From Psammoneis japonica (Eukaryota), in contig QPGO01000001.1 of assembly GCA_008632985.1 (NCBI GenBank), positions 1,024,404 through 1,088,403 of the forward strand: DNA of 64,000 nucleotides. Reading direction: 5' to 3'. Shown here one piece after another: positions 2,374 through 42,876 of the stretch (positions are counted from its first letter, which is position 1; every line of letters begins with the position of its first letter). The notes beneath the pieces were generated by a model. It saw nothing but the letters and a program-made list of their open reading frames with translations. It was not told the origin of the DNA and ran no database searches. The position numbers and the translations under genes were made by a program.

Positions 2374-3004
2374 AGAACGAAAAGAACTGAGGAACAGTTG
2401 AGTTGGCTTATATGTTGCGTGGTGTGGTTTTTGTTTTCTATTTCTTCATTTCTCTCTCTAATAGTCAGGCTCTCTAGAGAGAGTCGACTCAGGGTAACTA
2501 AACATAACATCAATCTTTTAAAATTATTGAATAGATTTCATTCGATATGGGATGATATAGGCCTACGGTAGCTTCGAAGTCGTCGTCATTCCATAAACAG
2601 AGATTGGGCTGATATATGGTGTGAGAATGATCTCTCAGCTAGCAAAGATGCTCGAAATAGCTTTTGGTGAGCTTTGATTGTGCACCATGATCGACCCCCG
2701 TCCAATTCTCTCAAGCTCTCTAAAGAGTCTTCTGCCGAATAAAACTCAAAATCCAGAAGAAATCAGTTTGCTATCTTAAATATTCTCTAGCTAGCTTAGG
2801 TAGTTAGATTAGGCAGCCTTTTCTGCCTTTGTTGCAGTGCATTGTAAAGCAAGGAGCACTCTGAGAGTATGTTTCCGTCAATCCATTTCTGTTTTCCGCT
2901 CCTGCGGATTGAAATCATCACGCAAGGTCATTAAAACTATTGTCAATACACAGTGATACTCTTCTTCATCCAGAAAGGTCAATCACAGCGCACCGAACTA
3001 TGTG

Positions 3005-3540
3005 TCAGTGCACAGATCTCAAAAAAAAGGTGTGGCAGAAAACAGCGAGACAGAACAGGGCGCAGAGTGGATGAAGTGCCAATGACAAGGATGCCACTGA
3101 CGATCCACCATCATCATGAAGAGAAATGATGTTCTCCGCAACTGCACGGCCACTCATGGCGGCACTGTGCGCATGTCCCCAGCCACATGCATCTCCATCA
3201 AAAGGCACAGCTTCTCCCGCAAAAAAGAGCTTGTTGTCGCCGACAGGTCTCTTCGCATTAGATCAACGGCACAGTCGCGAGAATCTCTCACCTTTGCCCA
3301 ACGATTGTAGCCCATCTGAATGTGTGGTTCCTCAACCCAGTTCTGAACAATGCAGTCGACAAGCGTTGCCGAAGCTTGTCCATCAAATATTTCATCCAAG
3401 TCTGCCAAGACGCCATCCACAACTTCCCGATCGCTGGCTTCATCGACGCATTGATCCGCAATGGCTCCATGAACAAAGAGCCCCAAGATGCTGGTGTTTG
3501 CAGTTAGTTTGGCCAAAAGTCTCATCATGGCATTCTGCAA
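3005..3540 (-). pseudogene. 3' fragment of a flavin-containing amine oxidase
   Basis: WVEEPHI...LFFAGEA...WGHAHSAAMSGRAVAE C-terminal motifs, frameshifted; homologous to 9610-10110; ends at a G-run (3540-3555). Confidence 0.75.
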
Positions 3541-6479: not shown

Positions 6480-8029
6480 GTAGGGCCCTACGGCACGGTG
6501 AGGTTATGTGCTGAATGACGAATCTTTCAGGCGCACGTTTGCATCGCATTCCACGTACAAAGACACAGCGTGACTTTTGGCGCGAGGGAGTGGTCCTCCC
6601 GTCGTCCGTTTCAGGAATGCAGCTGGAAAGTTTGCCATGGTGGCAAAGTTTGTTGGGTGCAAAGGGATGGGGAAAGCCAACACATCTGTCATTGCCTTTC
6701 AGAGGCATTGGCAAATGCCTCTGTAAACTCTCACAACCATGGCAAAATGTGGGGGACAGGTCCCTCCGCTGTTTTCCAACACACTCTCTCCTTTCTTTTC
6801 TTTTTCTGCCTTGCCCACAACGCAAACCTTTCTCACAAATCTTGCCAGATCAAAGGGCGCCCAATTGGCGCTGGAGCATTTGCCAGTTGAAGCCAACTCT
6901 GCCATGGCTTGTCCACATGAAGTCACTCATGCTGTTGGGATTTCACGGCTCACCAACTGTGATCTGCTCTTGTCTCGTGCGCCGACTCCCAAACTCGCCG
7001 TGTGTGGAGGATCCCAAGCACATTTCCAGTGCTGCCAGCACTGCCATTTGCCATGTCAACTGGGTGCAAAAACTAAAAAAGTGAGAGCAAGACCCATCTT
7101 TTGGTGGGAGTTGTGAACACAAACTCTTGCCATGTCCTCAACAGCCATCATCATGTCATCTGCGCTGCGGCGCCAAAAAGCCACCTCACACCCTGATGTT
7201 CCAACACATTCCTTCACACAAGGGGTCAATTGATTGGCCGCCCGCCTTGTCTGTGCTGATCCAAGGAGGGTGGCATCTCTTGCTTGGGTGATGATGGAGC
7301 AGAGCCGAGCTTCAGCTGTCTCATCCTCGGTTGCTGTCAGACCAATCTCCTTGAGCAAAAACTTTCTCATGCCACCATCATTTGGTGTTTGTGTTTTCCA
7401 GCCTTTTTGTTGCTGCCGGCTTCAACACAGTGGGTGCCGGAAATCAGGCCAGTGGTGGGCATGCAGAGAATTGGCACAAATGTGCATCTCGAAATGGACG
7501 ATTGCAAGGGTGTGTTGATGAGGGTCCATTTTGCCCTCTTGATGTCGTCATTGGCTCCAACGGGTTTTTGACAAGTCCTCTGTGTTGTCACTGCGGTGAT
7601 GGTCTGCACACTCACCCAGAGTGTGCCTGCCATGCCAGTTTGATGTTGCTCAAGGCCTGGGTCTCACAGCTGCTTTGGAGGCTGCAAGCACCACCTGGGG
7701 AGCTGTGGCAATCTCATTCTTTTCTTTCATCAATGCTGTGCTGCACATTGATGAGTCAAAAGCAAGTTTTTGCTTGCAGCCCATGCCGCCCACCGTCTGC
7801 AGCTCTCCAGCAAGAGCTCCAATTCTGGGTTCCTGCTGAGGGCTGCTGGAGTTGCAAGCCCCAGCCAAGGTCTGGTGCTCATGGCTTGTGCCACAACCAA
7901 CCAAAGTGCTCAGTCAGGAACATCAGCCACCAGAGAAGTGCAGAGCCAGAGAATGACAGATGGCAATGAACCAGCAATTGTGTGTGGAATGCAGCCAGAT
8001 GATTTTCCATCAAATGCTCTGCTTCCTTC

Positions 8030-8240
8030 CACCATTCCATCATGTGACCAATTTTCATTCTGGGTGCAGTTGTGTGCAAGTCCCAACAAGTGCACTGCAC
8101 CTTGTGAGTGACACGCTGCACCTGTTTTTTCTTCATTGGATGCAAGATGCAGCAATGCAAGAGTTGCTGAATTTGGCATGGAAGGCACCAGCAGCAGTGG
8201 CTGGATGGCAAAGTGGGGGAACTGTGACTCTGCTCAAACA
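8030..8240. repeat. Dispersed degenerate repeat, second copy at about 13150-13340
   Basis: agtcccaacaagtgcactgcaccttgtgagtgacacgctgca vs agtcccagcaagtgtgctgcaccttgcgagtgacatgctgca. Confidence 0.7.
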
Positions 8241-8619
8241 CACAGAAATGCTCATCTTGCACCACACTTCTGCACCAGCATGTGAGTTCAAAGATGTTGG
8301 CAAGTGGATTTGACAAAAGGCGCCACAAGATTGGACATGTTGGTGATGCAAACAGTGGCCACAGCTTTTGACACTCAGCGTTGGCACGCCAGATGTTTTT
8401 TTTTTCTGAGAAAGTCCCATGTTCTCATGTGCAGCATGGTGTGGCATGCAGAATGAGGCTCTGAGGCAAAAATGTGATCACAGGTCTCTGCATGACTTCA
8501 GCGCCAGGGAGCTGTTTGCACATTGTCACATGTGGCCAGCTCAAGACTTGGAGCAACTCTGGGCATCAGAAGATTTGTCATTGCAGTCATTCAGAGTTGT
8601 CTGTTGCGCCACTCTGCTT

Positions 8620-10110
8620 TCCAGCATGTTGGAATTGAGCACTTTCCTGGCCATGGATCTTGCAAAATTATGTCATCATGCCTCCATCTTGACCATCTTT
8701 AGTTCCATGGTGCATCTTGCCATTCCCGTTTGGGCTGGCTTTGCCGAGCTGCCCTTGTTTCTCCAAGGCTTGCTTGTTGGAGCTCCAGAGTCTAAGATTC
8801 TTTCATTTTTTAAATGAATGTTTCGAAGTGCATCAAAATGGCATTGAGGCCAAGGCTGATTAGAGAACAACAAGAGCTGATGAACAGTTGAGTGGGCTTG
8901 TGTGTTGCATGATGTGATTTTTGTTTTCAGTTTCTTCATTTGTCTCTCTGATGATCAGGCTCTCTAGAGAGTCAACTCAGCATGAATGAACACGACATTG
9001 CATTGAACAGGAGCAGATCCTCTCGGGAGGGGATGATTTCAAGAAGCCCAGAAACAGAGACTGGGCTGATGCATCTCTCAGCTGGCAAAGATGCTCGCAA
9101 TGGCTGTTGATGAGTTTCAGCTTTGTGGACAATGATCTCAGCTCAACTGCAGTGTAAACCGAGAGGACCACAGTCCAAATCTCCCAATCTGTCTATGGAG
9201 TTTTCTGATGAATGGAACTCAAAATCCAGAAGAAATCAGTCTGCCATCTGCTGCACTCTCTAGCTGGGTGTTTAGATTTGCCGACGACTCATGGCTCTCT
9301 TGAGTCTCAATGTGTGCAAATTGTGCACTCCGACGGAGGTGAGGCAAGCCATTCTGCGTTTGCTGCAGTGCAAAGCAAGGAGCACTGTGACAGCATGCTT
9401 TCGCCAAACCGTTTTCGTTTGCCACTGCTGTGGACTGAAATCATCACTCTGGGTGATCAAATCTACTGTCAATTCACACCAATGCTCTTCTTCATGCTGG
9501 AATCATCACTCTGGGTGATTGAATCTGCTGTCAATTCACAGTGATGCTCTTCTTCATCCAGAAAGGCCAATCACAGGGCATTTTAAATTTATGTGTCAGT
9601 GCACGGATCTCAAAAGAGATGAAAAACAGCGAGGTAGACCAGGGCACAGAGTGGATGCAGTGCCAATGACAATGATGCATCTGACGATCCATCATCTTCC
9701 TGAAGTGCAATGATGCTCTCCGCAACCGCACGGCCGCTCATGGCAGCACTGTGCGCATGTCCCCAGCCATGTGCATCTCCATCAAAAGGCATGGCTTCTC
9801 CCGCAAAAAAGAGCTTGTTGCCGCCAACAGGTCTTCGCATTGCATCAATGGCACAGTCACGAGAAGCTCCCTCCTTTGCCCAACGAGCACAAGCCGTCTC
9901 AATGTACGGTTCCTTGTGCCAGTTCTGAACAACGCAATCGACAAGCTTTTCCGAAGCTTGTCCATCAAACATTTCATCCAAGTCTTCCAATGCGCCATCC
10001 ACAACTTCCTGATCGCTGGATGCATTGACATGTTGATCCGCGATGGCTCCACAAACAAAGAGCCCCAAGATGCTGGTGTTTGAATTTTGGCCAAATGTCT
10101 TGTCACAGTG
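8620..10110 (+). repeat. Degenerate segmental duplicate of about 2140-3530 (exon 2 and 3' region of the membrane gene, intergenic DNA, amine oxidase 3' end)
   Basis: LELSTFLAMDLAKLCHHASILTIFS vs LELNTLLATDLAKLYHASILTVFS; collinear UTR/intergenic matches such as ggctctctagagag and aactcaaaatccagaagaaatcagt. Confidence 0.85.
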
Positions 10111-10820
10111 TAGCCTGTTGCCAAAAGCACTCGACGACAGGTCTTCCGCGTCGAATTCAACACAGTCACGTTCAATCACAAGCGCCAAAGGATAAAACGT
10201 GTCTGTAAATTTGCAGAACACCTTGATCCCAGGGCCATTTCACAGTCATCAATGGCCTGGGCATGACTTTTGGGCAAGTCTGGAACAAAGGAAATGGCCT
10301 TGTTTTGCAGCATTTGCATGGATGCCATCACAATGACACGCGACGCCTGAAGCGAGTCTCCGTTTTCGCATGTGGCTTTCACGGGCATGATGCTGTAGTC
10401 TGCTTGCATCACGGGACAGTCGAGAGTGATGTCTTCTGGATTCAAAGTCGACGCTAGTTGGTCATTGAGAAAGTCCCACCAGGTTGAATTGATCCACTTG
10501 CAGTCGTTTCCCGATGGTGTAGATTCAGCATAAATCAAAGAACCACCCCATGTGGATGCCTCCGACACGTCGTGCTTTGCTGCAGAAATGGTGCTTGCGA
10601 CATCTCGATCCACAATGGGATTCAAAATGGATGCTGGATCACCGTGAATCCACGCTCCACCGACATCAAGGGGAAAATCAGCCAAGGTGTCGACTTTTTT
10701 CAGCCGACCGCCGATGCGATCCGACGCCTCGAGGATCGCATGGGAAAGACCCGCTCGTTCCAAGCAGTTGGCCGCTGTCAAACCAGCCGCACCCGCTCCA
10801 ACAACAAGAACGTTCGTCAT
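9610..10820 (-). pseudogene. Flavin-containing amine oxidase (MAO/PAO family), near full length, frameshifted
   Basis: MTNVLVVGAGAAGLTAA (GxGxxG), LEASDRIGGRL, DVGGAWIHG, LFFAGEA motifs; split between ORFs 10176..10952 and 9610..10221. Confidence 0.85.
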
Positions 10821-11749
10821 GTTCAGCACCGCAATTGTGAAGGGCAGGGCCCCACTGTTGTGCCGGCAGAAGTTTGGTGTCGACTGATGACGAATGCACC
10901 TGATCACGACTGAACACGTCATCTGATGCGTCATCATTGCAAGACTCAGCACGTCATTTCCGAACCCCCAGTGATGTGGAACAAGTCTGCGTCACCAACT
11001 GCACTCCACTTTCGCACTCGCATTTCAATGCTTGCTGAGAATTTGTTGTGATCTTGTCATTTTGAACAGACATTTTGACCTTGTTGCAGTTTCAGGTGTC
11101 ATGATGTTTGCCTTTTTTCATGACATCATTCATGCAGTGGACAGGTGAAAAATGATGTGGAGAGAAAAGCATGGTGTGGGGGGGCACACACACTTGTTTG
11201 TCGCCATTGTGGCTGCTTTTTTGCAGGTCAGACAGCTTCAAAAAGGTTTGATCAAAGATGTTGCAGAGCAAACAGTGGGTGCAATGCAGCAAGCCCAGAA
11301 AGATCAAGCTTGCTGAGGAGAGGCTGTGGCGGCAATGCTGCTTTGGTGGGGGGGTCCTCCACTCCCCCCTCAAGCAAGCAGAAAAGGCGATGGGAGCAAG
11401 CCACCAAGTTGTTGGCTGCAGCTTTCACAGTGGTGGTGCAGAAAAAAACAACAACCTGGCCAAATTTCCATCAGGAACATCATGGCAGGCAGACCAGCAA
11501 GCATGAGAGGCTGCCCTTTCCCAGCACCAAGCACCGCCACAAATGCCAAAGCAAAAGTCAGCTCTGCTTTCTAGATCAGCAGGGGTGATGGCCATGGGTG
11601 AAGCCTTTCCATGCAGCAGCATTGCGGAGGCTTTGCAGCTTGATTTGGTGGCTGAGCTTTCTTCTCAGCAAAAGCAAAGGTTCAAAAAGTGGCACATGTT
11701 TCTGTTTCCTTCAATGCTGGCATGGGCAAGGACCTGCTGAAGGTCAATG

Positions 11750-12964
11750 TAGAGAGGTGAAAAACGGCAAGGCAGACCAGGGTGCAGAGTTGATGCAGTG
11801 CCAATGACAAGGATGCAACTGATGATCCATCATCTTCCTGAAGTGCAATGATGCTCTCCGGACAGCCGCTCATGGCGGCACCGTGCGCACATCCCCAGCC
11901 ATGGGCATCTTCATCAAAGGGCATGGCTTCACCCTCAAAAAGAGCTTGTCAATGCCAACAGGTTTTTGGACAACATCAAAGGCACAGTCATGAAAAGCTC
12001 CTGCTTTTGCCCAACAAGCACAACCTGTTTGAATGTGTGGTTCCTTGACCCAGTTCTGAACAATGCAGTTGACAAGCATTGCTGAAGCTCGTCCATCAAA
12101 CATTTCATCCAATTCTGTCATGATGCCATCTGCAACTTCCTGATCACTGGCCTCATTGATGCATTGATCCACAATTGCTCCACAAAGAAAGAGCCCCAAG
12201 ATGCCAGTGCATGTTGTTTGGCCAAAAGTCTCATCTCTCACAGCCTTCCCTCTTGCAAAAAAAAACTCAATGAGAGGTCTTCCAATTCGAATTCTTCAAA
12301 GTCACGTTCAATCACAAGCTTCAAAAGAAAGAAGTTGTCAGCAAATTTACAAAACACCTTGATCCCAGGGGCCATTTCACAGTCATCAATGGCCTCGGGT
12401 GTGACTGTCGGGTGAATCTGGAACAAAGGAAATGAATGGCCTTGTTCTGCAGCATTTGCAAGGATGCCATCACAATCACACACGATGCTTGAAATGAGTC
12501 TCTGTTTTTGCATGTGGCTTGGACTGGCATGATGCTGCAGTCCACTTCCATCACTGGACAATTGAGACCAACATCTTCTGGCTCAAAGTTGATGCCAGTT
12601 GGTCATTGAGAAAGCCCCACCATGTTGAATTGACCCACTGCTTGCAGTCATCTTCCAATTCAGATGCAGCACAAATCAAAGAACCATCAAAGACAGACAT
12701 CTCTGAGAAGTCATGCTTGACTGTGGAAATGGTGCTTGTGACATCTTCATCTGCAATGAGATTCAAAAGTGGTGCTGGATCACCCCCCGTGAATTCACTC
12801 TCCACCAACATCAATGAGAAAGTCAGCAAAGGTGTCATTTTTTTCAGCTGACTGCCAATGCCATCCAATGCCTCAAGAATCGCACAGGAAAGACCCGCTT
12901 GTTCCAAGTGGCAGGCTGCTGTCAAACCAGCTGCACCCGCTCCAACAATGAGAATGTCCATCAT
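11750..12964 (-). pseudogene. Third, more degraded amine oxidase copy
   Basis: MMDILIVGAGAAGLTAA...LEALDGIGSQL; APGIKVFCKF; WVKEPHIQ; multiple frameshifts; essentially TA-free. Confidence 0.8.
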
Positions 12965-13473
12965 GTTCAGCCTGACATCGCATCACATTGAAGAGAAGAA
13001 AGCAGAAAAACATCATGCCAAGTGCAGCAGATCTGTCTTCTGCATTCCGCTGCAATGTGCACAACTGACGCAAAGTGCAACTGACTCAGCATCTGAACAT
13101 TTCACACAGCATGCCAGACAACAATCTGTCAAACACAACGAATGCAACATTGCATTCATTCTGCCATTCCGTGATGCAACCACTTTCTGGACACACTTTG
13201 CATGATGCGAGTCCCAGCAAGTGTGCTGCACCTTGCGAGTGACATGCTGCATCTCTTCTCTTCTTCATTGGAAGTGAGATGCAGCAACACAGTGACAGCT
13301 GGCTGGCAAAGCAGGGAAACTGTGTTTCTTCTTGCTCAGAAGCACCCCCTGTGGTTGTTTGAGGGCTGGCGGGCTGAGCACAGAAAACTGCTTCTCTGAG
13401 TTGCTGGTCAATTCTCATTGACAAAGTCAGCTGGCTTCACAAACTGCTGAGATGGGCAAAGAAAGAGAAGTGC

Positions 13474-13530
13474 AAGAAGAAGAAGAAGAAGAAGAAGAAG
13501 AACAGGAAGCAGAGCAAGAAGAAGAAGAAA
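13474..13530. repeat. (GAA)n microsatellite
   Basis: aagaagaagaag... run with a second shorter run. Confidence 0.9.
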
Positions 13531-14714
13531 AAGAGTTTGCTGTCTCTGTGGGGCAACCAGTGTGCTGTCTCCAGCACTGATGCCACTCACCACTTGGGTG
13601 GCAGGGCTCCACCCTCCATGGAATGCTGGCTGTGCAATTTTGCCTTGATTTGTCCTTGTGCCTTTTCTCACTGCCAATGTGCACCTGCAATGGATTGCAC
13701 AAGAAATGTGCTCTCTTTGTGTGATGCTTTGTTTGACATCATCTCAAAGCATCAAAACACTGCCATGGTTTCTTCCAATCATTGATGAGACAATGACATT
13801 GAATGCAAAGAATGATGTGGGGCTTTTGACCCACCAGGTGGTTGGCAGGTTAGATGCAGCAAAATCACCTGATTTTGGTGAATTAAGAACATGCACATCT
13901 GGGTTCCTTTGGTCAGTTTAGACTGCCACACATGTTGAGTGTCATCACCACATGTCTAAAAAGCTGTGTGTTTTCATGGCATGTGATGTCACAACTTGAA
14001 TTTGCATCCAATGCAATGCACAAAACAAGCAAACAACAAAAAAACTGCATCTCTCACCATGGGGCTTGTTTGTTTGCATGTCTGTGGCAACATTGTCCAT
14101 CAAGGTGAGAGCATCATCACACAACAATCAGACAGTGCTTGATTTGATGGTTGTGTTAAATTTGTTCTTGTTGATGCTTGCTGGCATGCTGCATTTAGAC
14201 ATGCAAACAAGCAAAGTGCCAGCTAACTTTTCTGTTGTTCTCATGACCGTGATGCACATGTGATGAGTCTGCAAGCACTGAGTTCATTTTCAATTTAGAT
14301 GGCTGCATGCACATCCAGTGAAAAAAGACATTTTGGTTTCCAAGTGAGGCAACAGTTTCATCAACAATGCACTGTCTGTAACTTTTAGCAAGGAGTGATG
14401 ACATGTCCTTGTTGACACACATCTGAGATGGCAACATCAGATCTGTTGTGTCAAGCTGGTCTGTTGCATCATTGCTCGTCACTTTAGAAGCCTTGTGCTT
14501 GTTGCTTTTTCAACCAACACTTCAGCTGAATTTTTTGTTCCTCTGTTGACTGCATGCCACAGCAAATGCAATGCACCCCATGCTTTGTCATGGGACAATG
14601 CGGGAAACCAAACTGTGCAATGGACTGGAGGAGCTCTGAGCCATTGGCAACCAGATCTGTGGCTGCTGGCAATGGTCTTTTCATGTGACAGATTTGTGAG
14701 TCAGCTGCCATCAT

Positions 14715-15305
14715 CATCCGTTGGCACTCAAGGTGGTGAGAGCCTTTTCGCTGCTTGTGAGGGCAGTGGTGGGAGTCTTTGTGTGGTTGGAGCCTGTGTG
14801 CCACTGCCAGCACCATCTTTGCATGGTTGGAGCCTGTTTGCTGCTGGCACTCAAGGTGGCGGAAGCCTTTTTGCTGCTTGCGCTGGCGGCAGTGGTGGCG
14901 GGAGTCTTTTTTTGCAGTTGGAGCCTGTTCACCACTGGCACTCAAGGAGGTGGGAACCTTTTTGCTGCTTGCGTGGACAGCGGCAGGAGTCTTTGTGTGG
15001 TTGGAGCTGCTCCAGGAGGTGGGAACCTTTTTGCTGCTTGCGTGGACAGCGGCAGGAGTCTTTGTGCGGTTGGAGCCTGTGTGCTGTGCCAGCACTGTCT
15101 TTGTGTGGTTGGAGCCTGTTCACTGCTGGCACTCAAGGTGGTGGGAGCCTTTTTGCCACTTGCACTGATGATGGTGTGAGTCTTTGTACAATTGGAGCCT
15201 GTGCACCGCTGGCACTTGAGGCGGTTGGAGCCTTTTTGCTGCTTGCACTGGTGATGGGAGTCTTCTTTGCACCACTTGCACTGGTGGCGGGGTTGGAGTC
15301 TTTGC
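14715..15305 (-). repeat. Degenerate coding-like tandem repeat (ASSKKAPT / SASGEQAPT units)
   Basis: Recurrent gtggttggagcctgt and ggagcctttttgctgcttgc motifs; minus-strand peptides TSASSKKAPT, HASSKKVPTS. Confidence 0.65.
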
Positions 15306-18658: not shown

Positions 18659-18934
18659 TGACAGAAATTGAAGGCAAATGGCAAGAATTCAAACAATGAC
18701 TCCTTGCTGCTGTCTAAACAGCAGATGAGTCTCCGCTCAGAGACCGTCACAGGAGCCGAAAGACGTGCAAGTCGGTGTGATCGGGCTGCTGTTGTCATCC
18801 TTGTGAGCCTTGTGGCTCGAAAGCAAACTACATCGCGCGTGAACGCGCGGAACTAAAGCACACAAAACTGTGCGCGGCAAACTAAACTGCGCGTGACACT
18901 TCGCGCGCACCCAAATCCTGTTCAAATCCTGTCA
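18659..18934 (-). repeat. 3' LTR of outer Copia
   Basis: tgacagaaattg...aaatcctgtca, adjacent to PPT. Confidence 0.95.
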
Positions 18935-20254
18935 CTCCCCAGTTTGCTTGAGGAGTCACAGAAACAGATTCAACTTCGGATGGAATGAAGTTCCAGAACA
19001 TGAGGGGGCGGAGAAGGTCCCAGATTTGGGAGCAACCCCAATGCTTGCTGAGAATGTCAGCAGGGTTGCGGGAGCCTTCGATGAAGTGGAACTCAAGGTG
19101 GCCAGAGGCAATTGCCTCACGCACACGGTGGAACGACAGTGCGGTGTGTCGCTTGTGCAACTTGGAGTGCGGGATGGTGGCACTGTCTACAACCGACTTG
19201 TTGTCACCGAACATGCAACTGACATTGCGGATTGGGACGCCAAGGTGGCGCAGGGTGATGCGCAGGTCGACAATCTGCTCAACACAAGTCCTTGCGGCAA
19301 CAAATTCAGACCCGCAGGTCGCAGTCTCCACGGTGGCTTGCTTCTTAGAGAACCAATCAGCCGGGAATTTGTTGAGGAAGTGGAGCATTCCCATGACAGA
19401 GCGTCCGGTGAGCATGCAATGGCACAAGTTTGCATCGACGTAGTGGGTGGCAGTGACGAACTTGCCAAGGGGCGGTGGAGCGTCCTTCGGGATCATCTCT
19501 TCTGCTTCGCCATGCACGGAATGCATCCATTCACAGGCCGGAGCAGGGAGATCCGAACAGTCGGGCTCTTCCGTGCGAACGTGGAGAGCACCGTGTCGCA
19601 TCTTGGAGAGGTGCCCACAGACGCGTTTGGCATGATCCAAGTGGCCTTGACGGGGCGCAGCTCGGAAGCCAGAGAGTGACATGACGGCCGTGGCAATGTC
19701 AATTCGACCAAGGGACACTGCCCATTGGAGTGAACCAACAAGAGACTGGAACTTGTGAATGCCATCGGGTCCCAGCAGTTCGGAAGTGTCCAGTTCGGGG
19801 TGGTCACCCTTCTCCAGAGGTGACAGGGCATTGGTGGTGGGTTTCTCCCCAAACAGTCGGGCGCAGCTGTCGACCATGTGCTCGATGTACTTGCGCGGAG
19901 ACAGGCACAAGGTTCCGTCAGGATCCCGGGAAAAGTCGCAACCCAGATGGAACTCAATGGGTCCCGCACCCTTGAGCTTGAACTTGTGCTTTTCCGTGAG
20001 AGTGTCGACGAAAGATTGAGGGTCCTTCATGGCAATGGCGAGGTCATCCACATAAACGGCAATGTGTTCACAGTGGTCGCCGTTCCTGCGCATCCAAATG
20101 TCGGGTTCGGCGCAGCAGGGGAAGAAGCCTTCAGCTCGCAGGCAGTCGGCGAAGCGCTCGTGCCAGCGGAGACCGGAGCTGCGCAGTCCATGCAGTGCCT
20201 TGTGGATGACAAGGATGTGTCCTTCGAGTTTGCCAAATTCGGGTCCGGCTGCAA
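18935..20254 (-). pseudogene. RT (3' part) and RNase H of outer Copia, Tyr-depleted
   Basis: HKALHGL, AVYVDD, YVDAN, SEFVA, FGDN, ADILSK; matches 20531-21850 at an offset of 1596. Confidence 0.9.
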
Positions 20255-20530
20255 TGACAGAAATTGAAGGCAGGTGGCAAGAATTCAAACAATGACTCCT
20301 TGCTGCTGTCTAAATGGCAGATGAGTCTCCGCTCAGAGACCGTTGCAGGAGCCGAAAGACGTGCAAGTCGGCATGGTCGGGCTGCTGTTGTCATTCTTGT
20401 GAGCCTTGTGGCTCGAAAGCAAACTACATCGCGCGTGAACGCGCGGAACTAAAGCACACAAAACTGTGCGCGGCAAACTAAACAGCGCGTGATGCTTCGC
20501 GCGCATCCAAATCCTGTTCAAATCCTGTCA
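20255..20530 (-). repeat. 3' LTR of inner Copia
   Basis: 276-bp copy of the same LTR, PPT adjacent. Confidence 0.95.
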
Positions 20531-23500
20531 CTCCCCAGTTTGCTTGAGGAGCCACAGAAACAGATTCGACTTCGGATGGAATGAAGTTCCAGAACATGAG
20601 GGGTCGGAGAAGGTCCCAGATTTGGGAGTGACCCCAATGCTTGCTGAGAATGTCAGCAGGGTTGCGGGAGCCTTCGATGAAGTGGAACTCAAGGTGACCA
20701 GAGGCAATTGCCTCACGCACACGGTGGAACGACAGTGCGGTGTGTCGCTTGTGTAACTTGGAGTGCGGGATGGTGGCACTGTCTACAACCGACTTGTTGT
20801 CACCGAACATGTAACTAACATTACGGATCGGGACGCCAAGGTGGCGCAGGGTGATGCGCAGGTCGATAATCTGCTCAACACAATTCCTTGCGGCAACAAA
20901 TTCAGATCCGTAGGTTGCAGTCTCCACGGTGGCTTGTTTCTTGGAGAACCAATCAGCCGGGAATTTGTTGAGGAAGTGGAGCATTCCCATGACATGGCGT
21001 CCGGTGAGCATGCAATGGTGCAAGTTTGCATCGACGTAGTGGGTGGCAGTGACGAACTTGCCAAGGGGCGGTGGAGCGTCCTTCGGGATCATCTCTTCTG
21101 CTTCACCACACACGGAATGCATCCATTCATAGGCCGGAGCAGGGAGATCCGAACAGTCGGGCTCTTCCATGCAAACGCGGAGAGCACCGTGTCGCATCTT
21201 GGAGAGGTGCCCACAGACGCGTTTGGCACGATCCAAGTGGCCTTGACGGGGTGCAGCTCGGAAGCTAGAGAGTGACATGACGGCCGTGGCAATGTCAATT
21301 CGACCAAGGGACACTGCCCATTGGAGTGAACCAACAAGAGACTGGAACTTGTGAATGCCATCGGGTCCCAGCAGTTCGGAAGTGTCCAGTTCGGGGTGGT
21401 CACCCTTCTCTAGAGGTGACAGGGCGTTGGTGGCAGGTTTCTCCCCAAACAGTCGGGCGCAGCTGTCGACCATGCGTTCGATGTACTTGCGCGGAGACAG
21501 GCACAAGGTTCCGTCGGGGTCCCGGGAAAAGTCGCAACCCAGATGGAACTCAATGGGTCCCGCACCCTTGAGCTTGAACTTGTGCTTTTCCGTGAGAGTG
21601 TCGACGAAAGATTGAGGGTCCTTCATGGCAATGGCGAGGTCATCCACATAAACGGCAATGCATTCACAGTGGTTGCCGTTCCTGCACATCCAAATGTCGG
21701 GTTCGGTGCGGCAGGGGAAGAAGCCTTCAGCTCGCAGGCAGTCGGCGAAGCGCTCGTGCCAGCGGAGACCGGAGCTGTGGAGTCCATACAGTGCCTTGTG
21801 GATGACAAGGATGTGTCCTTCGAGTCTGCCAAATTTGGGTCCAGCTACAATGTAAAGCTTCTCCTTGGTGGTGGCTTCAAGGTAGGCATTGCCAATGTCG
21901 GTGGCCCATGTCTCTAGCTCGTTGAGTTCGGCCAGGAAAATCATCAGCCGAAGGCCACGGAGGGAGACTACTCCGGAGTAGACACTGTCGATAGGTACGT
22001 CCGTGAGGTGCCCGTCGGCTACGAGTCGTGCCTTGTGGCGACCGTCGTGTTTCACGTCGTACACCAGGTGCACTCGGATCTTCTTGTGTCCCGCAGGAGG
22101 AGTGGAAGACTTGAAGGGCCCGCAGTCATGGAAGACTTCGTATTCGTCGAGTTGGTCCATCTCGAGATTAGTTGCGTCTCCCCACTTGCGGTTGCCGTTG
22201 CGTTCGTCTAGTGACATGGCGTGTTTGTAGTTCCGGGGAACTTCGTGTCCGTGCTTGCAGTGAGGTGCAGTGCAGAAGGAGCGAAGCTTGGCTTGGTTGG
22301 CCATGCGAAACAGCTTCTTTTGGCGCCTCGCGATGGTGCGGAACCGCTTCCAGCCATCCGTGTCGAGGAGTCCGTTCTCTCGTGCATAGATGGCACAGGT
22401 GACGGGGTCGTCCTTGGCGATGATGGCAAGAGGCTCGGACGTGATCTCCCCACTTTCCCATTCAAGCATGATGTTGTAGCTTGAGCCTTTCCAGGTTGGG
22501 TCGTGAGGCTTCAGAGGTCCTTCGTGTGACACGATGCGTCGAAATTTCCAAATGGTGGTGTCTTCGTCTTCTTGCTCAATGTGATTCATGATGTCATTGT
22601 GGGCAAGGACTTCCTCGTATTCGTCATTGTTGACAGAGCAGACGAACTTAGTGAGCTCGGGATTGCCGTTCACTTTCCATTCGTGGTCTTCGACGGCCTT
22701 GACGATGCGAGCTCTGTGGCGTTGTCCGTCCTCTTGTGGCTGCATGAGGAAGGTACGTCCAATGATGTCTTGCGGATCGAAAACTGGCATCTTGGGTGTC
22801 CTGATCTCCCCATCAGGAGAATCGACGGGGTTGTCGTCATGGCGAGATTTGATGATGGGTTCAGGTGGCTCCCCATCAGGAGGATCAAGACGCAGGTTTC
22901 GAACGGCAGGATCGGGGGTGGCGGAGCGAACGTTGGACCGGCAGAGGATCTTCTGAGTCTCGTCAGATAGAATCTTGAAGGTCATCTGGTGGCCGACGTG
23001 CTCAGCAATGCCAACGAAGCGTCCACGCAACTCACGGGATTCGGACGGCCAATCGGAGTCATCGAGGTGGAAGTGCACTGGTTCCCACCAGTGAAAGCGA
23101 AGCAATGGGCTGATGTCCGGGGTGGATCCAGTGAGAGTCTCGAGGGGCGTGCGCCAGTGGAGACGTGGGGACGCTGCATGGTTGAGCATGAAGCACACGT
23201 GCATGAGCGCCAGCAGCCATGTGTGGGCGGGCGAACCAAAACGGTCCATGACAGTGTTCGCCATGCGCTTCACAGTCTGGTGTCGACGCTCGGCAAAGTT
23301 TTGGTGTTGCTGGTGAGGCTCACTTTGCCAGCTGGAGATGAAGAGGGCACGTAGGATCCCGAGCACTTTGTTGCTGATCTCAACTTGAGCACGGTCGCCA
23401 ATGAGTTTGGATGGGGCACCACGTTCACGGATCTGATCCTCGAGTGTGTTGACAAACTCTTTGTCCGTCTAGTGCCGCAGACGTCAGTGACGTAGACTCG

Positions 23501-26500
23501 GTGCCAACAAACAGTTGGGCGCTGGTGCAACCAGAGTCAACGGCCGGGGTGTCGGCACAAACGGTGTCAGTGGCGACAGGCTCGTTGCGGCGGTGCACAT
23601 TAAGGGCGGGGTTGGGTGATTTGCAGGCCTTGCGAAGGTGTGTACCGGCGGGCATGCGGGCGCACTGCGTGGTGCAGTCAAAAGTACGACGGACCGCATC
23701 GGCAGGTAGGAAGCCAAAGCAAGGCCGAAGAGACTCGAAGGGGGGGTCCTTGGGCTGTACAGTGCGCTCCGGAGGTGGAACGTCATCGCCCTTGGGGTCA
23801 ATCGCATGCAGATGACACTCGTAGAACACGTCGTCGTTCGGAATGAGGTGATCATCGAGGGCGGACGCGTGATCGGCAGACAAGGAAGCGGACAAGATGG
23901 TCTCGTTGACAACGACACGGTGACGGTAGTTGCCGCATTCGTCAAATGGGTTGGCAGTGGGATCGTCCTGCAGGTCAGAGATCGCGTCGTACCACTGGTC
24001 GTCGTCAGTGACAGAGTGATCGAGGACGGAAGGGTCCCATGTGTCATCACCGGTGAGGATGACATGGGGCAGGGTGTCCCATTCGGCGTCAGTGCAAGGT
24101 CGCATGGCAACACAAGGCAGGCCAGCCTTGATGTCAATGGGGATGACATGGCCATCAGGAGTGGCAACACGTTGCAAGCCGTTGGGCACCTTGACAGAGC
24201 GATCGTTGACATCCTGTTTGTACCATTCGAGCTGGCCGCAGGAATGGATGGTCTTGCCCTTGCCCGTGTGTGCGCACTGATGGAGGATGGCGATGACGGG
24301 ACCACGCTGGGTCTCAATGACGGCACCAGCGGTGACAACAGGGATGTCCACCAATTGATGATCGTCAATGCCCTGAACGTTGACTTGGCGAGAGGTGCGT
24401 GCAATGACGCAAACGTCGTCGCCAGCAATGCCGCCGTTGGCCCCACGATCAACTAGAGCGCCAGTGCGTGTGGAGCGATGAGCAGAGGCAGAGCAAATGA
24501 CATTGTGGTTGTCAACGCGGCGGCAAGTGCGGCCGTTAAGTTCCATGTCATCTGCAGAAGCTGGCGGGGTAGAGGAAGCGGCGGATGGCCCTGGTCGACT
24601 GGCATTGGGGGCTTGGTTAGGAGACAACAGACGTTGCAGATCACCGGGTGGCAGTGGCTTGCGCTTGGTGAGGTGCGCCAGGATGGGATTGTCTGAAGTG
24701 GCGTCAACATGTGGAGCAGAGTCACCAGAGTCAGCAGGAGTCGTGTTGGACAAGTTGACATCACCGTCACTCCCAAGGCGTTGGTCGTGAAGGTTGGCCG
24801 TAACAGACTCATGGTAGTTGCTGGCTCGCGGGTTGCAGGGAGGCGGACGAGAATGCTCAAGGATGATCGCCTTGGAGGAATCGGGCAATGAATCCCAGAG
24901 CCGTTGGTGGTCGGGAGGGAGACGTCTCCATTGGACACCGGCGAGGCTGGGACCGCGGGTGCAGGCAGCATTGGCTTGAAGGACGTCAACGTCGCTGTCA
25001 ATGTCGTAGAACACATCGTCGGACAGTTCCTCGGAGTGGACGTCGTGTGCGTGTGTGGCGCGTCGGGGAGCTCGAGGTGTCGTCTTGGGTTGAAACGTGC
25101 TGTCGCACTGAGCTGCCGCGGAGAGGAGCAAGCCACAGCATTGATCGCATGTGAGGCTCTTGCCACTCTGCGTGCGATGCTGATCAGCTTGGTTCTTGAC
25201 AGCACGGAGTTCCTCGACAGGGTGCACGGCATTCTCGAGCATGACGCGCTTCTGTCCTTCAGAGAAGTGGTCACTGGCCGGGATGAGTGCCTTGTACTTG
25301 CGCAACTGATCTTGCCAATGAAGGATGAACCCGTGGGTCGGACCTTTCCAAGTGCCATCACCAAGACGTGCGGTGGTGAGGTGCGTGAGCAGGGTGGAGG
25401 ACTCGACAGATGCGCGGGTGGAGGCAAGCGCGTGCTCAGACAAGGAGCGGTAGACGGTCTGTGCGTCAGAAGACCCCACATTTTCGCGAATGAGAGCCTT
25501 GCCCTTGTCGGTGAGAAGGATGCGTTCGAAGACGGCGAACATGTACTTTTGCTGTTCAGCAAAGAGCAGTTTGTCTTCGGGGCTGGTCGGTTTGTACGAC
25601 GAGTCTAGAATGCACTCGACGTCTTGGGCACGGGCTTGTGCCACAAGTGAGGTGTGCCAAGTTTGCCACTGCTTGTCGGATTTGAGGGCCGTGAAAGCGG
25701 TGGGATCACGCTTGATGCCTCGCTTGAAGTCCCGCACCGGGTCGCGTGCCTTGGTCGGGTTGGTGACATGTGGAGGTGCAAGGGGTGAGCTGCCGATGGA
25801 CACAGAAGACATGTGGTCGGGGCTGAGGCGGCAGGCAAGGAACTCGTCATGCGTGAACAAGGAGGAGTCGTTGGCAACGTCAAGACCTTTGTGTGCTTTG
25901 ACAATGTACAGACTGACTAGTGCTGCTAACATGTTCTTATAACCACGGGGCAAAGGGATTGCATCAGTGCCGTTGTCGTACTCAAGCGAGTCGATTTGGG
26001 ACGGTATGAACGTGAATAGTTCCTGATGCGAGTCCGTGCCGTCTTGGGCCAAAGCCAAACGAAGAGGACTCCCAGCACCTTGGGCAAGCACGGTTCCAAC
26101 AACGTGCTCGAAACCATCGGTTTGTTGCTGACGAGTGAGAACCATGGTAGACAAAAGTGGTGTCAGGACAATCAATTCTGGTTGGGAAGCGAAGGTAGAC
26201 TCGAAACTTGGGTGAGAATAGACTTGACGTGAAACAGACTTGACTTGAAATCTTGAACTATCTTAAAATCAGAAGTCACCGGGCTTTGTTATCCCGTTCG
26301 TTGTCAAGTGCTAAACTTCCTATCCGGTCCGTAGAGTTGTGCCGGCACGTCCGAACCCGCAGCTGGTGGCGCTTTGGGTTGCTTACGAGCAGAGTAGCGG
26401 GTTGTAAACCCCTGCAGGTAAGCTGACTAGAGGTGGACAAGACCCCGAACCGTTCTTATTTTATATCGGTTGGATTTCCCGATCAGGCTGGCCAGTTGAC

Positions 26501-26852
26501 GTGGGCGTCAGGCGCTGTGAACGAACGAACAAACGCGGGAAAGCACCCTCGCCCCAACGTAGGCTGTAATCACGGCTACTTGCTCTCACAGTCGTCCTCG
26601 TGGACCTAGTAGAACTGTAGAGCACCAGCAGTCCGGGGTAGATCAGGTGCAATGGACTCGGTGTGCTTGTAGAGTGGCAGCAAAACCGCAGTCCGAAGAG
26701 TGGATAAAGGTTCTTGGCCGTGAAGACATGCATGCACACACACATGTCTTCAGCGACTAAGATCCTTGAATGTGTAGGGTTCTTGACCGTTAACCGAGGA
26801 ATGGGCACGTCAAGGGATGTTGATCAAGGACAGACTTGGATGTGACCGTTGA
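20255..26852 (-). mobile_element. Inner Copia copy (UTR-gag-pol-3' LTR; 5' LTR missing)
   Basis: ORFs 23425..26175 and 20478..23366 (split by two 1-bp deletions near 23470-23495); LTR 20255-20530 abuts the outer RT. Confidence 0.9.
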
Positions 26853-29800
26853 CAGTTGCGTCTCCCCACTTGCGGTTGCCGTTGCGTTCGTCCAGTGACA
26901 TGGCGTGTTTGCAGCTCCGGGGAACTTCGCATCCGCACTTGCAGCGAGGTGCAGTGCGGAAGGAGCGAAGCTTGGCTTGGTTGGCCATGCGAAATGGCTT
27001 CTTTTGGCGCCTCGCGATGGTGCGGAACCGCTTCCAGCCATCCGTGTCAAGGAGTCCGTTCTCTCGTGCGTAGATGGCACAGGTGACGGGGTCGTCCTTG
27101 GCGATGATGGCAAGAGGCTCGGACGTGATCTCCCCACTTTCCCATTCAAGCATGATGTTGTAGCTTGAGCCTTTCCAGGTTGGGTCGTGAGGCTTCAGAG
27201 GTCCTTCGTGTGACACGATGCGTCGAAATTTCCAAACAGTGGTGTCTTCGTCTTCTTGCTCAATGTGATTCATGATGTCATTGCAGGCAAGGACTTCCTC
27301 GTGTTCGTCATTGTTGACAGAGCAGACGAACTTAGTGAGCTCGGGATTGCCGTTCACTTTCCATTCGTGGTCTTCGACGGCCTTGACGATGCGAGCTCTG
27401 TGGCGTTGTCCATCCTCTTGTGGCTGCATGAGGAAGGTGCGTCCAATGATGTCTTGCGGATCGAAAACTGGCATCTTGGGTGTCCTGATCTCCCCATCAG
27501 GAGAATCGACGGGGTTGTCGTCATGGCGAGATTTGATGATGGGTTCAGGTGGCTCCCCATCAGGAGGATCAAGACGCAGGTTTCGAACGGCAGGATCGGT
27601 GGCAGCGGAGCGGATGTTGGACCGGCAGAGGATCTTCTGAGTCTCGTCAGATAGAATCTTGAAGGTCATCTGGTGGCCGACGTGCTCAGCAATGCCAACG
27701 AAGCGTCCACGCAACTCACGGGATTCGGACGGCCAATCGGAGTCATCGAGGTGGAAGCACACGGGTTCCCACCAGTGAAAGCAAAGCAATGGGCTGATGT
27801 CCGGGGTGGAGCCAGTGAGAGTCTTGAGGGGCGTGCGCCAGTGGAGACGTGGGGACGCTGTGTGGTTGAGCACGAAGCACACGCACATGAGCGCCAGCAG
27901 CCATGTGTGGGCGGGCGAACCAAAACGATCCATGACGGTGTTCGCCATGCGCTTCACGGTCTGGTGTCGACGCTCGGCAAAGTTTTGGTGTTGCTGGTGA
28001 GGCTCACTTTGCCAGCTGGAGATGAAGAGGGCGCGTAGGATCCCGAGCACTTTGTTGCTGATCTCAACTTGAGCACGGTCGCCAATGAGTTTGGATGGGG
28101 CACCACGTTCACGGATCTGATCCTCGAGTGTGTTGACAAACTCTTTGTCCGTCTTAGTGCCGTAGACGTCAGTGACGGTAGACTCGGTGCCAACAAACAG
28201 TTGGGCGCTGGTGCAACCAGAGTCGACGGCCGGGGTGTCGGCACAAACGGTGTCAGTGGCGACAGGCTCGTTGCGGCGGTGCACATTGAGGGCGGGGTTG
28301 GGTGATTTGCAGGCTTTCCTAAGGTGTGCACCGGCGGGCATGCGGGCGCACTGCGTGGTGCAGTCAAAAGTACGACGGACCGCATCGGCAGGTAGGAAGC
28401 CAAAGTGAGGCCGAAGAGACTCGAAGGGGGGGTCCTTGGGCTGTACAGTGCGCTCCGGAGGCGGAACGTCATCGTCCTTGGGGTCAATCGCATGTAGATG
28501 ACACTCGTGGAACACGTCGTCGTTCGGAATGAGGTGATCATCGAGGGCGGACGCGTGATCGGCAGACAAGGAAGCGGACAAGATGGTCTCGTTGACAACG
28601 ACACGGTGACGGTAGTTGCCGCATTCGTCAAATGGGTTGGCAGTGGGATCGTCCTGCAGGTCAGAGATCGCGTCGTGCCACTGGTCGTCGTCAGTGACAG
28701 AGTGATCGAGGACGGAAGGGTCCCATGTGTCATCACCGGTGAGGATGACATGGGGCAGGGTGTCCCATTCGGCGTCAGTGCAAGGTCGCATGGCAACACA
28801 AGGCAGGCCAGCCTTGATGTCAATGGGGATGACATGGCCATCAGGAGTGGCAACACGTTGCAAGCCGTTGGGCACCTTGACAGAGCGATCGTTGACATCC
28901 TGTTTGCACCATTCGAGCTGGCCGCAGGAATGGATGGTCTTGCCCTTGCCCGTGTGTGTGCACTGATGGAGGATGGCGATGACGGGACCACGCTGGGTCT
29001 CAATGACGGCACCAGCGGTGACAACAGGGATGTCCACCAATTGATGATCGTCAATGCCCTGAACGTTGACTTGGCGAGAGGTGCGTGCAATGACGCAAAC
29101 GTCGTCGCCAGCAATGCCGCCGTTGGCCCCACGATCGACTAGAGCGCCAGTGCGTGTGGAGCGATGAGCAGAGGCAGAGCAAATGACATTGTGGTTGTCA
29201 ACGCGGCGGCAAGTGCGGCCGTTAAGTTCCATGTCATCTGCAGAAGCTGGCGGGGTAGAGGAAGCGGCGGATGGCCCCAGTCGACTGGCATTGGGGGCTT
29301 GGTTAGGAGACAACAGACGTTGCAGATCACCGGGTGGCAGTGGCTTGCGCTTGGTGAGGTGCGCCAGGATGGGATCATCCGAAGTGGCGTCCACATTTGG
29401 AGCAGAGTCACCAGAGTCAGCAGGAGTCGTGTTGGACAAGTTGACATCACCGTCACTCCCAAGGCGTTGGTCGTGAAGGTTGGCCGTAACAGACTCATGG
29501 CAGTTGCTGGCTCGCGGGTTGCGGGGAGGCGGACGAGAATGCTCAAGGATGATCGCCTTGGAGGAATCGGGCAACGAATCCCAGATCCGTTGGTGGTCGG
29601 GAGGGAGACGTCTCCATTGGTCACCGGTGAGGCTGGGACCGCGGGTGCAGGCAGCATTGGCCTGAAGGACGTCAATGTCACTGTCAATGTCGTAGAACAC
29701 ATCGTCGGATGGTTCCTCGGAGCAGACGTCGTGTGCGTGTGTGGCGCGTCGGGGAGCTCGAGGTGTCGTCTTGGGTTGAAACGTGCTGTCGTGCTGAGCT

Positions 29801-30861
29801 GCCGCGGAGAGGAGCAAGCCACAGCATTGATCGCATGTGAGGCTCTTGCCACTCTGTGTACGATGCTGATCAGCTTGGTTCTTGACAGCACGGAGTTCCT
29901 CGACAGGGTGCACGGCATTCTCGAGCATGACGCGCTTCTGTCCTTCAGAGAAGTGGTCACTGGCCGGGATGAGTGCCTCGCACTTGCGCAACTGATCTTG
30001 CCAATGAAGGATGAACCCGTGGGTCGGACCTTTCCAAGCACCATCACCAAGACGTGCGGTGGTGAGGTGCGTGAGCAGGGTGGAGGACTCGACAGATGCG
30101 CGGGTGGAGGCAAGCGCGCACTCAGACAAGGCGCGGCAGACGGTCTGTGCGTCAGAAGACCCCACATTTTCGCGAATGAGAGCCTTGCCCTTGTCGGTGA
30201 GAAGGATGCGTTCGAAGACGGCGAACATGTGCTTTTGCTGTTCAGCAAAGAGCAGTTTGTCTTCGGGGCTGGTCGGTTTGTACGACGAGTCTAGAATGCA
30301 CTCGATGTCTTGGGCACGGGCTTGTGCCACAAGTGAGGTGTGCCAAGTGTGCCACTGCTTGTCGGATTTGAGAGCCGTGAAAGCGGTGGGATCACGCTTG
30401 ATGCCTCGCTTGAAGTCCCGCACCGGGTCGCGTGCCTTGGTCGGGTTGGTGACATGCGGAGGTGCAAGGGGTGAGCTGCCGATGGACACAGAAGACATGC
30501 AGTCGGGGCTGAGGCGGCAGGCAAGGAACTCGTCATGCGTGAACAAAGAGGAGTCGTTGGCAACGTCAAGACCTTTGTGTGCTTTGACAATGTGCAGACT
30601 AACTGGTGCTGCTAACATGTTCTTATGACCATGGGGCAAAGGGATCACATCAGTGCCGTTGTCGCACTCAAGCGAGTCGATTTGGGACGGCATGAACGTG
30701 AATGGTTCCTGACACGAGTCCGTGCCGTCTTGGGCCAAAGCCAAACGAAGAGGACTCCCAGCACCTTGGGCAAGCACAGTTCCAACAACGTGCTCGAAAC
30801 CATCGGTTTGTTGCTGACGAGTGAGAACCATGGCAGACAAAAGTGGTGTCAGGACAATCAA
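26853..30861 (-). pseudogene. gag-PR-IN of outer Copia, truncated before RT
   Basis: 1345-aa ORF: LVDRGANGG protease; VATDTV / LIGDRAQVE / NFAERR integrase core; homology breaks at ...WGDAT where the inner UTR begins. Confidence 0.9.
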
Positions 30862-42691: not shown

Positions 42692-42876
42692 TTTTTCTAC
42701 TCCAGATCAAAGCCAACGTCATGCACGTTCAATCACTCAACGCAAGGAGTTTCAAGGGGTTGGAGACGAAACCTTACTGTGATGCGTGATGGTGTGTTGA
42801 TGATGATGTTGTTGTGATTATGCTGAAAGCGGCGCGCCGCGGGCATTGCTGTGGGCGGAAAATCCACAGGCGCGCG

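Follow-up and report, generated by a model that had tools for sequence, protein, structure and literature searches.

Organization and dinucleotide composition of the window

The DNA analysed here is a single stretch of 64 kb from Psammoneis japonica, referred to as the window throughout its whole length, and carries genes for a sulfatase, a WW/laminin-G protein, ankyrin and PDZ proteins and a Copia-type reverse transcriptase; the window is eukaryotic. Next to genic DNA lie blocks from which the dinucleotide TA has been nearly erased in favour of TG and CA. The subject of this report is the sequence context of that loss, in which the base 3' to A matters: 5'-TAY-3' (Y, pyrimidine) is preferred over 5'-TAR-3' (R, purine) by a factor of 2-5, firmly for TAC and probably for TAT. 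All counts come from this window, supplemented by homologs that were fetched and by metagenome relatives of its Copia element.

Over the whole window the observed/expected ratio (o/e) was 0.29 for TA and 0.65 for CG, and about 1.5 for both TG and CA. In blocks of 0.75-4 kb, TA o/e falls to 0.00-0.1 and CG o/e mostly to 0.05-0.4 while TG and CA rise to near 1.9, and these TA-erased blocks adjoin, with sharp edges, genic DNA with a TA o/e of 0.6-0.77. The Copia cluster (18659-32048) is intermediate, being low in TA (o/e about 0.1-0.3) with CG near 0.9, which indicates that the loss of TA precedes that of CpG. Within a genic paralog pair, TG and CA were not in excess at TA sites, and the TA-erasing process is limited to repeat, transposon and pseudogene DNA.

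For the analysis of contexts, DNA in which both TA and CG had been erased was designated as old block, and copies 2 and 3 of a triplication were dropped because they are non-independent, which left 18,775 bp with 57 TA; genic DNA of 15,450 bp with 727 TA was used as the baseline. The TA sites were classified as YTAR, RTAY or mixed (YTAY and RTAR). Flank classes based on R and Y are indifferent to transitions and to G+C content, so that comparisons between classes are robust and were preferred over those of single tetranucleotides. The main blocks are as follows.

10376-15125: old depleted block around 13801-14500, with 18 TA (12 YTAR, 6 mixed, 0 RTAY); its left portion, 11753-12971, is a decayed pseudogene copy of an amine oxidase
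13801-14500: part of this old block with TA and CG nearly gone; 11 TA, 10 of them YTAR
6676-8775: old depleted block, TA o/e 0.03, CG o/e 0.25, 4 TA left
32126-34275: old depleted block, TA o/e 0.03, CG o/e 0.10, 4 TA left
51026-53725: old depleted block, TA o/e 0.07, 12 TA left
59776-64000: old depleted block, TA o/e 0.06, 17 TA left
34476-41975: genic control DNA (sulfatase and WW/laminin-G genes), TA o/e 0.6-0.77, part of the 15,450-bp baseline

Contexts of the TA sites remaining in old blocks

The 700 bases of 13801-14500 hold 11 TA against 91 TG, 85 CA and 2 CG. The initial annotation had placed ten of these 11 TA in the YTAR context, and the recount gave the same result, with six TTAG, two TTAA and two CTAA besides a single GTAA. 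The 11 sites are not copies of each other (best ungapped match 21/42, vs a mean of 12 for random 42-mers centred on TG), and a check for tandem repeats over them found none. The probability of at least ten YTAR among 11 is 2e-7 at the genic share of this class (126/727) and 0.002 at its share in all old blocks (25/57).

Because this segment had been picked by an earlier reader, the fair test is given by the remaining window. The old blocks without 13801-14500 retained 15 YTAR, 29 mixed and 2 RTAY sites, as compared with 126, 386 and 215 in genic DNA (chi2 16.1, p 3e-4), and with that segment included the old-block counts were 25, 30 and 2 (chi2 32.3, p 1e-7). A null distribution derived from the flank composition of the old blocks themselves predicted 17.9 YTAR, 28.1 mixed and 11.0 RTAY, from which the observed counts also deviate (p 0.006), and around TG and CA in these blocks the flank classes were 23% YNNR, 52% mixed and 25% RNNY. 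The proposal that TA contexts in depleted DNA depart from background is therefore borne out within the window against the genic contexts, the local flank composition and the TG/CA flanks alike. Moreover, the YTAR share increases from weakly to strongly depleted DNA (0.20, 0.18, 0.37 and 0.42). In a Poisson model with a per-strand hazard set by the class of the 3' base, this hazard was 2.05 for Y as compared with 0.86 for R (likelihood-ratio p 3.6e-9), and the four-base version of the model gave, among old survivors, 2.54 for T, 1.74 for C, 1.10 for G and 0.70 for A.

The survivors in old blocks are also enriched for T at position -3 and A at position +2 (56% vs 30% in genic DNA), giving the pattern T-Y-TA-R-A, for example TTTAGA in 13801-14500. 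In the young Copia copies described below, sites with T at -3 were the slowest to change, 15/71 vs 20/42 for A (p 0.03, uncorrected). The recognised context may thus be longer than four bases, for which these figures are suggestive only.

Polarized events in the tandem Copia copies

Since the counts of survivors could mirror the birth of TA, events of change were examined, for which the Copia element is the main source.

18659-32048, minus strand: Copia-type retrotransposon with internal tandem duplications, source of the young polarized events
18659-20256 and 20255-21852: tandem pair, 95.8% identity
22170-26852 and 26854-31537: tandem pair, 96.5% identity
starts at 18659, 20255 and 31771: copies of the 278-bp long terminal repeat (LTR)
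26824-30948, minus strand: open frame for the N-terminal part of the Copia polyprotein, 1374 codons, used for the conserved-tyrosine test
20478-23468, minus strand: open frame encoding the reverse transcriptase domain RVT_2; its segment 20478-22169 entered the tyrosine test

The structure of the element is odd, as the LTR plus 1.3 kb is present as a tandem duplicate and the internal part of 4.7 kb likewise. A site was included when TA was present in at least one of the two copies, and each event was placed on the strand where it reads A>G. The fraction of changed sites rose from YTAR (12/26) through mixed (35/57) to RTAY (14/18). When counted per strand, 39 of the 93 contexts with a 3' pyrimidine had changed vs 22 of the 109 with a 3' purine (Fisher p 0.0012), with the order C 32/69, T 7/23, A 10/41 and G 12/67 for the individual 3' bases (p 0.003), while the base 5' to T had no effect (24/93 vs 37/109, p 0.22). 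The decay of CpG in the same copies, taken as a control under the same flank analysis, showed no flank effect (33/497 vs 23/485, p 0.22).

The direction of change at mixed sites discriminates between two models, because a rule based on the 3' base predicts YTGY and RCAR and a rule based on the base before T predicts the opposite. The young copies followed the 3'-base (TAY) rule at 25 such sites and the opposite rule at 10 (p 0.017). Double hits, in which the two copies were struck independently so that one carries TG and the other CA, were distributed as 20 RNNY, 19 mixed and 1 YNNR among 40, on a background of 23, 53 and 24% (RNNY vs YNNR, p 1e-5); this skew to RNNY would be expected if RTAY is fast and YTAR slow on both strands. 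Altogether 61 of 101 TA sites had changed in the young copies as compared with 56 of 491 CG sites, and thus TA changes per site several-fold faster than CpG decays in the same DNA.

Events in the triplication

42874-50808: triplication, 3 x 2645 bp, 99.7% identity

Each 2645-bp unit consists of about 1850 bp of erased DNA (TA o/e 0.01-0.03, CG o/e 0.08) and about 650 bp with a TA o/e of 0.6-0.7. The initial annotation had listed five recent changes in the triplication, each reading TAY>TGY on one strand, and all five were found again: ATAC>ATGC twice, GTAT>GTGT, GTAC>GTGC, and GTAG>GCAG, which on the minus strand is CTAC>CTGC. Four of the five are thus at TAC. The probability of five TAY in five is 0.02, given 46% TAY among the strand contexts of the 38 TA sites of the unit. 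These five changes occurred at about 105 TA sites, as against one among the remaining non-CpG positions of about 7.9 kb, and all five sit in the part of about 650 bp that is still rich in TA. This is consistent with, although no proof of, an onset of hypermutation in this part only after the triplication, and hints at duplication or spreading silencing as the trigger.

Conserved tyrosine codons of the Copia element

The tyrosine codon provides an assay that does not depend on a second copy in the window: it always reads TAY on the coding strand, and the other strand reads TAY only when a purine precedes the codon. Hundreds of homologs of the Copia polyprotein, at 41-56% identity, were available for this comparison. 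The 1374-codon frame contains 0.44% Tyr and 3.13% Cys, as compared with 3.84% and 0.91% in 60 homologs, while residues other than Tyr are retained at about 80-100% in the Copia frame of the window. At 62 alignment columns with at least 50% Tyr, the codons preceded by a pyrimidine were kept 13 times and changed to Cys 14 times and to His 3 times; those preceded by a purine were kept 3 times and changed to Cys 11 times and to His 9 times. The inequality of Cys and His was significant after a pyrimidine (p 0.013) and absent after a purine (p 0.82), and the kept fractions differed between the two groups (p 0.033). From these counts the per-strand hazard is roughly estimated at about 0.7-1.0 for TAY, and for TAR at about 0.15, giving a TAY:TAR rate ratio of about 5, as compared with 2.1-2.7 from survivors and pairs.

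Such replacements are unusual for the family. Among 120 homologs the conserved-Tyr columns were replaced by Phe 477, His 98 and Cys 42 times, vs 16 Cys and 5 His in the window (p 1e-4). In one of the 120 homologs (P0046), 52 conserved-Tyr columns included 8 with Cys and 6 with His, and it may be a mildly hypermutated copy from another data set.

A scan of metagenomes with the single Copia protein gave no relatives, and a scan with an alignment of Copia proteins gave 73 relative loci. The hypermutation signature was found in none of these 73 loci, and they serve as a baseline, not as a replicate. For 72 of them pooled, the conserved-Tyr positions (2570) read Tyr 2179, Cys 14, His 18 and Phe 240. 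The remaining locus (L009) was excluded from the baseline; its segment 601-3500 has a TA o/e of 0.17 and a CG o/e of 0.45, yet 12 of 17 conserved tyrosine codons are kept, and its low TA looks like avoidance of codons or dinucleotides, not hypermutation. Against the same-family baseline of the 72 loci with 22,981 TA (4112 YTAR, 11259 mixed and 7610 RTAY), the Copia element of the window, taken as one copy per part (7,112 bp), retained 22 YTAR, 43 mixed and 11 RTAY sites, which corresponds to a relative survival of 0.33, 0.235 and 0.089, respectively (p 9e-4).

Requirement for 5' T and action on both strands

The rate of A/G differences depends on the 5' neighbour, being 5.0% after T (55/1100), 2.9% after C (54/1854), 0.7% after A (9/1315) and 0.8% after G (13/1709). 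An elevation of AA>AG, which would have pointed to an error-prone polymerase, was thus absent, since the rate after A is as low as that after G. The class after C, which belongs to CpG and lacks a flank effect, is best read as the ordinary decay of 5-methylcytosine. In addition, conserved His stayed His at 15 of 16 columns and conserved Gln stayed Gln at 20 of 21, with no change to Arg, which places CA>CG outside the process and makes the motif TAY instead of YAC.

At RTAY sites the two strands changed alike, with TG 8 and CA 6 in the young copies and Cys 11 and His 9 at the tyrosine codons. In-place duplicates, LTRs, the triplication (which is not a retroelement) and amine-oxidase pseudogenes are all affected. 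These observations indicate that the process acts at the level of DNA after integration and is neither RNA editing nor coupled to transcription. The data thus show that T is strictly needed 5' to A, that the 3' base influences the rate, that both strands are attacked and that the process is independent of CpG decay.

Nature of the process and alternative explanations

A preference for pyrimidine 3' to A is, with good confidence, a real property of the process. The initial annotation had proposed TAY as a preference and not a rule, and this description agrees with both the survivors and the polarized tests, with the effect lying at the base 3' to A and not at the base 5' to T. In the model proposed, 5'-TA-3' in repeats, transposons and duplicated pseudogenes would undergo a transition at the DNA level to TG, or to CA when the other strand is struck, at a rate set by the base that follows A on the changing strand, a pyrimidine being attacked about 2-5 times faster than a purine, C clearly and T probably being favoured. 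RTAY would present the fast context on both strands and be lost first, mixed sites would have the fast context on a single strand and change mostly in the corresponding direction, and YTAR, slow on both strands, would be left as the remnant in old blocks such as 13801-14500.

Several observations weigh against this model or narrow its basis. The events were all collected within a single window of 64 kb, most of them in one element, and the trend over the three site classes in the young pairs, taken alone, is not significant (p 0.11). The direction of change in the young copies was 21:4 at TAC-type sites and 4:6 at TAT-type sites, and the ranking of C and T is inconsistent, TAT being the most depleted only among old survivors. 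Of the eight CTAG sites in the Copia copies, which belong to the YTAR class, six had changed and two were kept, which bears out the exceptions of this type that had been noticed at the outset. The oldest pair (2146-2792 vs 8629-9265, 72% identical) showed a direction at mixed sites of 3 for and 6 against; in the same pair YTAR was kept at 5 of 10 sites vs 1 of 14 for the other classes. Contigs of sequencing run X1, which contains the stretch and is possibly the source of the assembly, placed at 80% likeness on 26854-45518 gave 653 variant places, mostly transitions, and among the 40 variant places listed the three at TA sites read TAR>TGR in the window copy; these three probably overlap with young-copy events already counted. 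Part of the residual TA in old blocks is perhaps newly born, the baseline of these survivors is uncertain, and A>G on one strand is indistinguishable from T>C on the other.

On another view the YTAR excess reflects birth or ancestry and not a target preference, through back-mutation of YTGR and YCAR, transversions in T- or A-runs, or ancestral composition. The enrichment of T at -3 and A at +2 could stem from TA sites that originated where T-runs meet A-runs, and TTAT/ATAA is the commonest mixed class. However, with TG/CA flanks that are 23% YNNR and 25% RNNY, unbiased back-mutation would not yield the observed 25:2, and the tests that are independent of survivors (kept vs changed, direction, double hits and tyrosines) agree on the bias, by which this explanation is largely refuted and very improbable. 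Still less credit can be given to error-prone synthesis at WA motifs (W, A or T) by an enzyme like DNA polymerase eta, of the kind seen during the A:T phase of somatic hypermutation: A>G at TA is part of the WA signature, but AA>AG stays at the background (9/1315 vs 55/1100 for TA) and transversions are rare in the copy pairs. Equally remote is the editing of double-stranded retrotransposon RNA by an ADAR-like enzyme, followed by copying into DNA through reverse transcription. ADARs favour a 5' U (PMC10661471) and the parallel is raised in the discussion of the preprint on Bigelowiella natans described below, yet the ADAR hot spot is 5'-UAG (PMC10661471), whereas in the window a 3' G is favoured least of all (12/67); furthermore, in-place duplicates, LTRs, a triplication without retroelement nature and pseudogenes all differ at TA, and at RTAY sites both strands are struck alike.

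Two further explanations accept the bias and differ in its chemistry, and both are considered unlikely. If TA were attacked uniformly, the bias could arise from repair, a lesion such as hypoxanthine opposite T being better removed before a purine. All the tests count fixed mutations, so that formation and removal of a lesion are inseparable in them, and nothing in the window is directly contrary to this scheme; it needs, however, an extra context-dependent step, and the sequence preferences of deaminases are well documented (PMC10661471, PMC7056309). For the other scheme, in which T in 5'-R-T-A-3' is modified, by oxidation of TET/JBP type to 5-hydroxymethyl- or 5-formyluracil or by O4-alkylation, and then read as C, the data on the triplication, the tyrosines, the young copies and the double hits fit equally well, since every TAY>TGY change reads as RTA>RCA on the opposite strand. 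The 5-hydroxymethyluracil of dinoflagellates is enriched at TpA, which is in favour of thymine chemistry, but we know of no thymine-modifying enzyme that gives near-pure T>C at such rates. The authors of the published precedent, in addition, discuss adenine deamination (bioRxiv 10.64898/2026.01.13.699255).

Adenine deamination by an enzyme that reads T-A-Y appears to be the most economical chemistry. In a tentative reading of the footprint, a TadA/ADAT-like deaminase aimed at silenced DNA would convert adenine to hypoxanthine, which is then read as G. A wider proposal, which is more doubtful, is that the TAY fingerprint marks a natural adenine deaminase of chromosomal DNA, derived from the TadA/ADAT family with a recognition like that of U33-A34-C35 kept. 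Such an enzyme would be directed at DNA that is silenced or duplicated and would defend the genome by erasing TA where repeat-induced point mutation (RIP) makes it, as a "reverse RIP", in at least two distant algal lineages. No gene for a deaminase of TadA/ADAT type was found among the open frames of the window that were searched.

Comparison with known systems

RIP in Neurospora and other ascomycetes changes C to T mainly at CpA and makes TpA. The process described here resembles RIP as a transition hypermutation limited to repeats or duplicates, with a dinucleotide target, a graded preference for neighbours, ruined transposons and skewed dinucleotides. In contrast to RIP, TpA is lost and not gained (window o/e 0.29, locally 0.00), TG and CA are made, the shift in composition is the opposite, and dependence on duplication is only hinted at by the triplication.

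The natural target of TadA is the U33-A34-C35-G36 loop of tRNA-Arg, and most tRNA substrates of eukaryotic ADAT2/3 carry a purine after A34, which does not predict TAY. For this reason a TadA-like pocket would account for the preference for TAC better than the usual repertoire of ADAT2/3. As with TadA and the early adenine base editors derived from it, the A attacked follows directly after U or T, and the TAC preference of the recent events (32/69) resembles the C that follows A in UAC of tRNA-Arg and in the YAC of the early editors; the old survivors, in contrast, point to T no less than to C. The present process differs in that the need for 5' T is strict and CA>CG is unseen, making the motif TAY and not YAC, in that TAT seemingly is struck too, and in that both strands of chromosomal DNA are attacked whereas the natural enzymes work on tRNA loops. 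In the table of one review, the motif of TadA/ADAT2 is given as 5'-ACG, that of APOBEC as 5'-TC and that of ADAR as 5'-UAG (PMC10661471). APOBEC3 and ADAR are likewise deaminases directed against viruses or retroelements that are identifiable by a short motif in the footprint; they differ in that APOBECs change C, and ADARs use double-stranded RNA and favour a 3' G.

The closest precedent is the TpA hypermutation of integrated giant-virus and virophage DNA described in the main text of a preprint on Bigelowiella natans (Mettrop et al., bioRxiv 10.64898/2026.01.13.699255). Both systems show A>G/T>C almost exclusively, with every change at TpA and with TpG or CpA as the outcome depending on the strand; in both, foreign or repeat-type DNA is affected and the TA of ordinary genes is spared. 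As described there, the TpA-depleted coding sequences of B. natans are enriched for reverse transcriptase and DDE domains, the rate per generation is about 1000 times the genome baseline and is on in some lines only, and an ADAT2-like candidate is discussed. The rates of B. natans were measured in mutation-accumulation lines of a chlorarachniophyte, whereas in P. japonica, which belongs to another lineage, footprints alone were analysed; decay of CpG runs alongside in the P. japonica window. The main text of the preprint makes no mention of a 3'-base preference, the words "context", "trinucleotide", "tetranucleotide" and "flanking" being absent. A full-text literature search on TpA depletion in transposable elements of diatoms gave nothing relevant by title or abstract. 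TpA hypermutation itself is already published (B. natans, 2026), and what is new here is its occurrence in another lineage together with a quantified preference for the 3' base.

Significance of the footprint

The preference for neighbours is the main clue that leads from the footprint of a mutator to its enzyme. By such preferences the signatures of APOBEC and AID have been assigned. The footprint can now be written as 5'-T-A-Y, in which the base before T is irrelevant, AA>AG is absent and the two strands are equal, and by which polymerase eta and ADAR are eliminated. It predicts for any candidate deaminase that TAC, and probably TAT, should be attacked 2-5 times more than TAA and TAG, and the same prediction is applicable to the published list of 231 de novo mutations from the B. 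natans lines. If the deaminase reading is true, the footprint would single out the enzyme among candidates, and this enzyme would be a natural editor of DNA from A:T to G:C. For practical use of this genome, the ages of transposons estimated from LTR divergence are inflated, changes of Tyr to Cys are a marker of dead copies, and long open frames in depleted DNA are unreliable.

Other features of the window

Host-type gene duplicates are struck as well as transposons, as is shown by copies of a flavin amine-oxidase gene.

9610-10991, minus strand: copy of a flavin amine-oxidase gene, split over two frames (TA o/e 0.13), with paralogs at 11753-12971 and 2910-3522

These copies, which are polyamine-oxidase-like, are at different stages of decay, with a TA o/e of 0.13 at 9610-10991 (minus strand), 0.01 at 11753-12971 (minus strand) and 0.23 at 2910-3522, and the best copy is already broken into two frames. 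In the tyrosine test on this gene, for which 47 of 150 homologs were aligned, only four conserved-Tyr columns were available, of which one was mis-mapped and the other three read Tyr kept, His after a purine and Cys after a pyrimidine; these are too few for a test.

Two repeats lie in the old block 10376-15125, an (AAG)20 microsatellite at 13474-13534 and a 69-bp unit present twice with 97% identity at 14941-15076. A Pfam search of the open frames in old blocks, including 13000-15125, gave no matches. With the 1374-codon and reverse transcriptase frames of the Copia element, Pfam detected only RVT_2 (E up to 0.01); the gag, protease and integrase models stayed unmatched despite the hundreds of full-length relatives. 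Depleted DNA contains 39 open frames of at least 200 amino acids on both strands, many of them overlapping, because TAA and TAG have been erased, and gene callers would over-predict in such DNA. With 12,346 contigs placed, the summed depth of run X1 was about 1e5 on the Copia unit (26854-32460), about 5,000 on the triplication unit and about 55 on single-copy DNA, and the Copia and triplication families thus seem to be very abundant in the genome.

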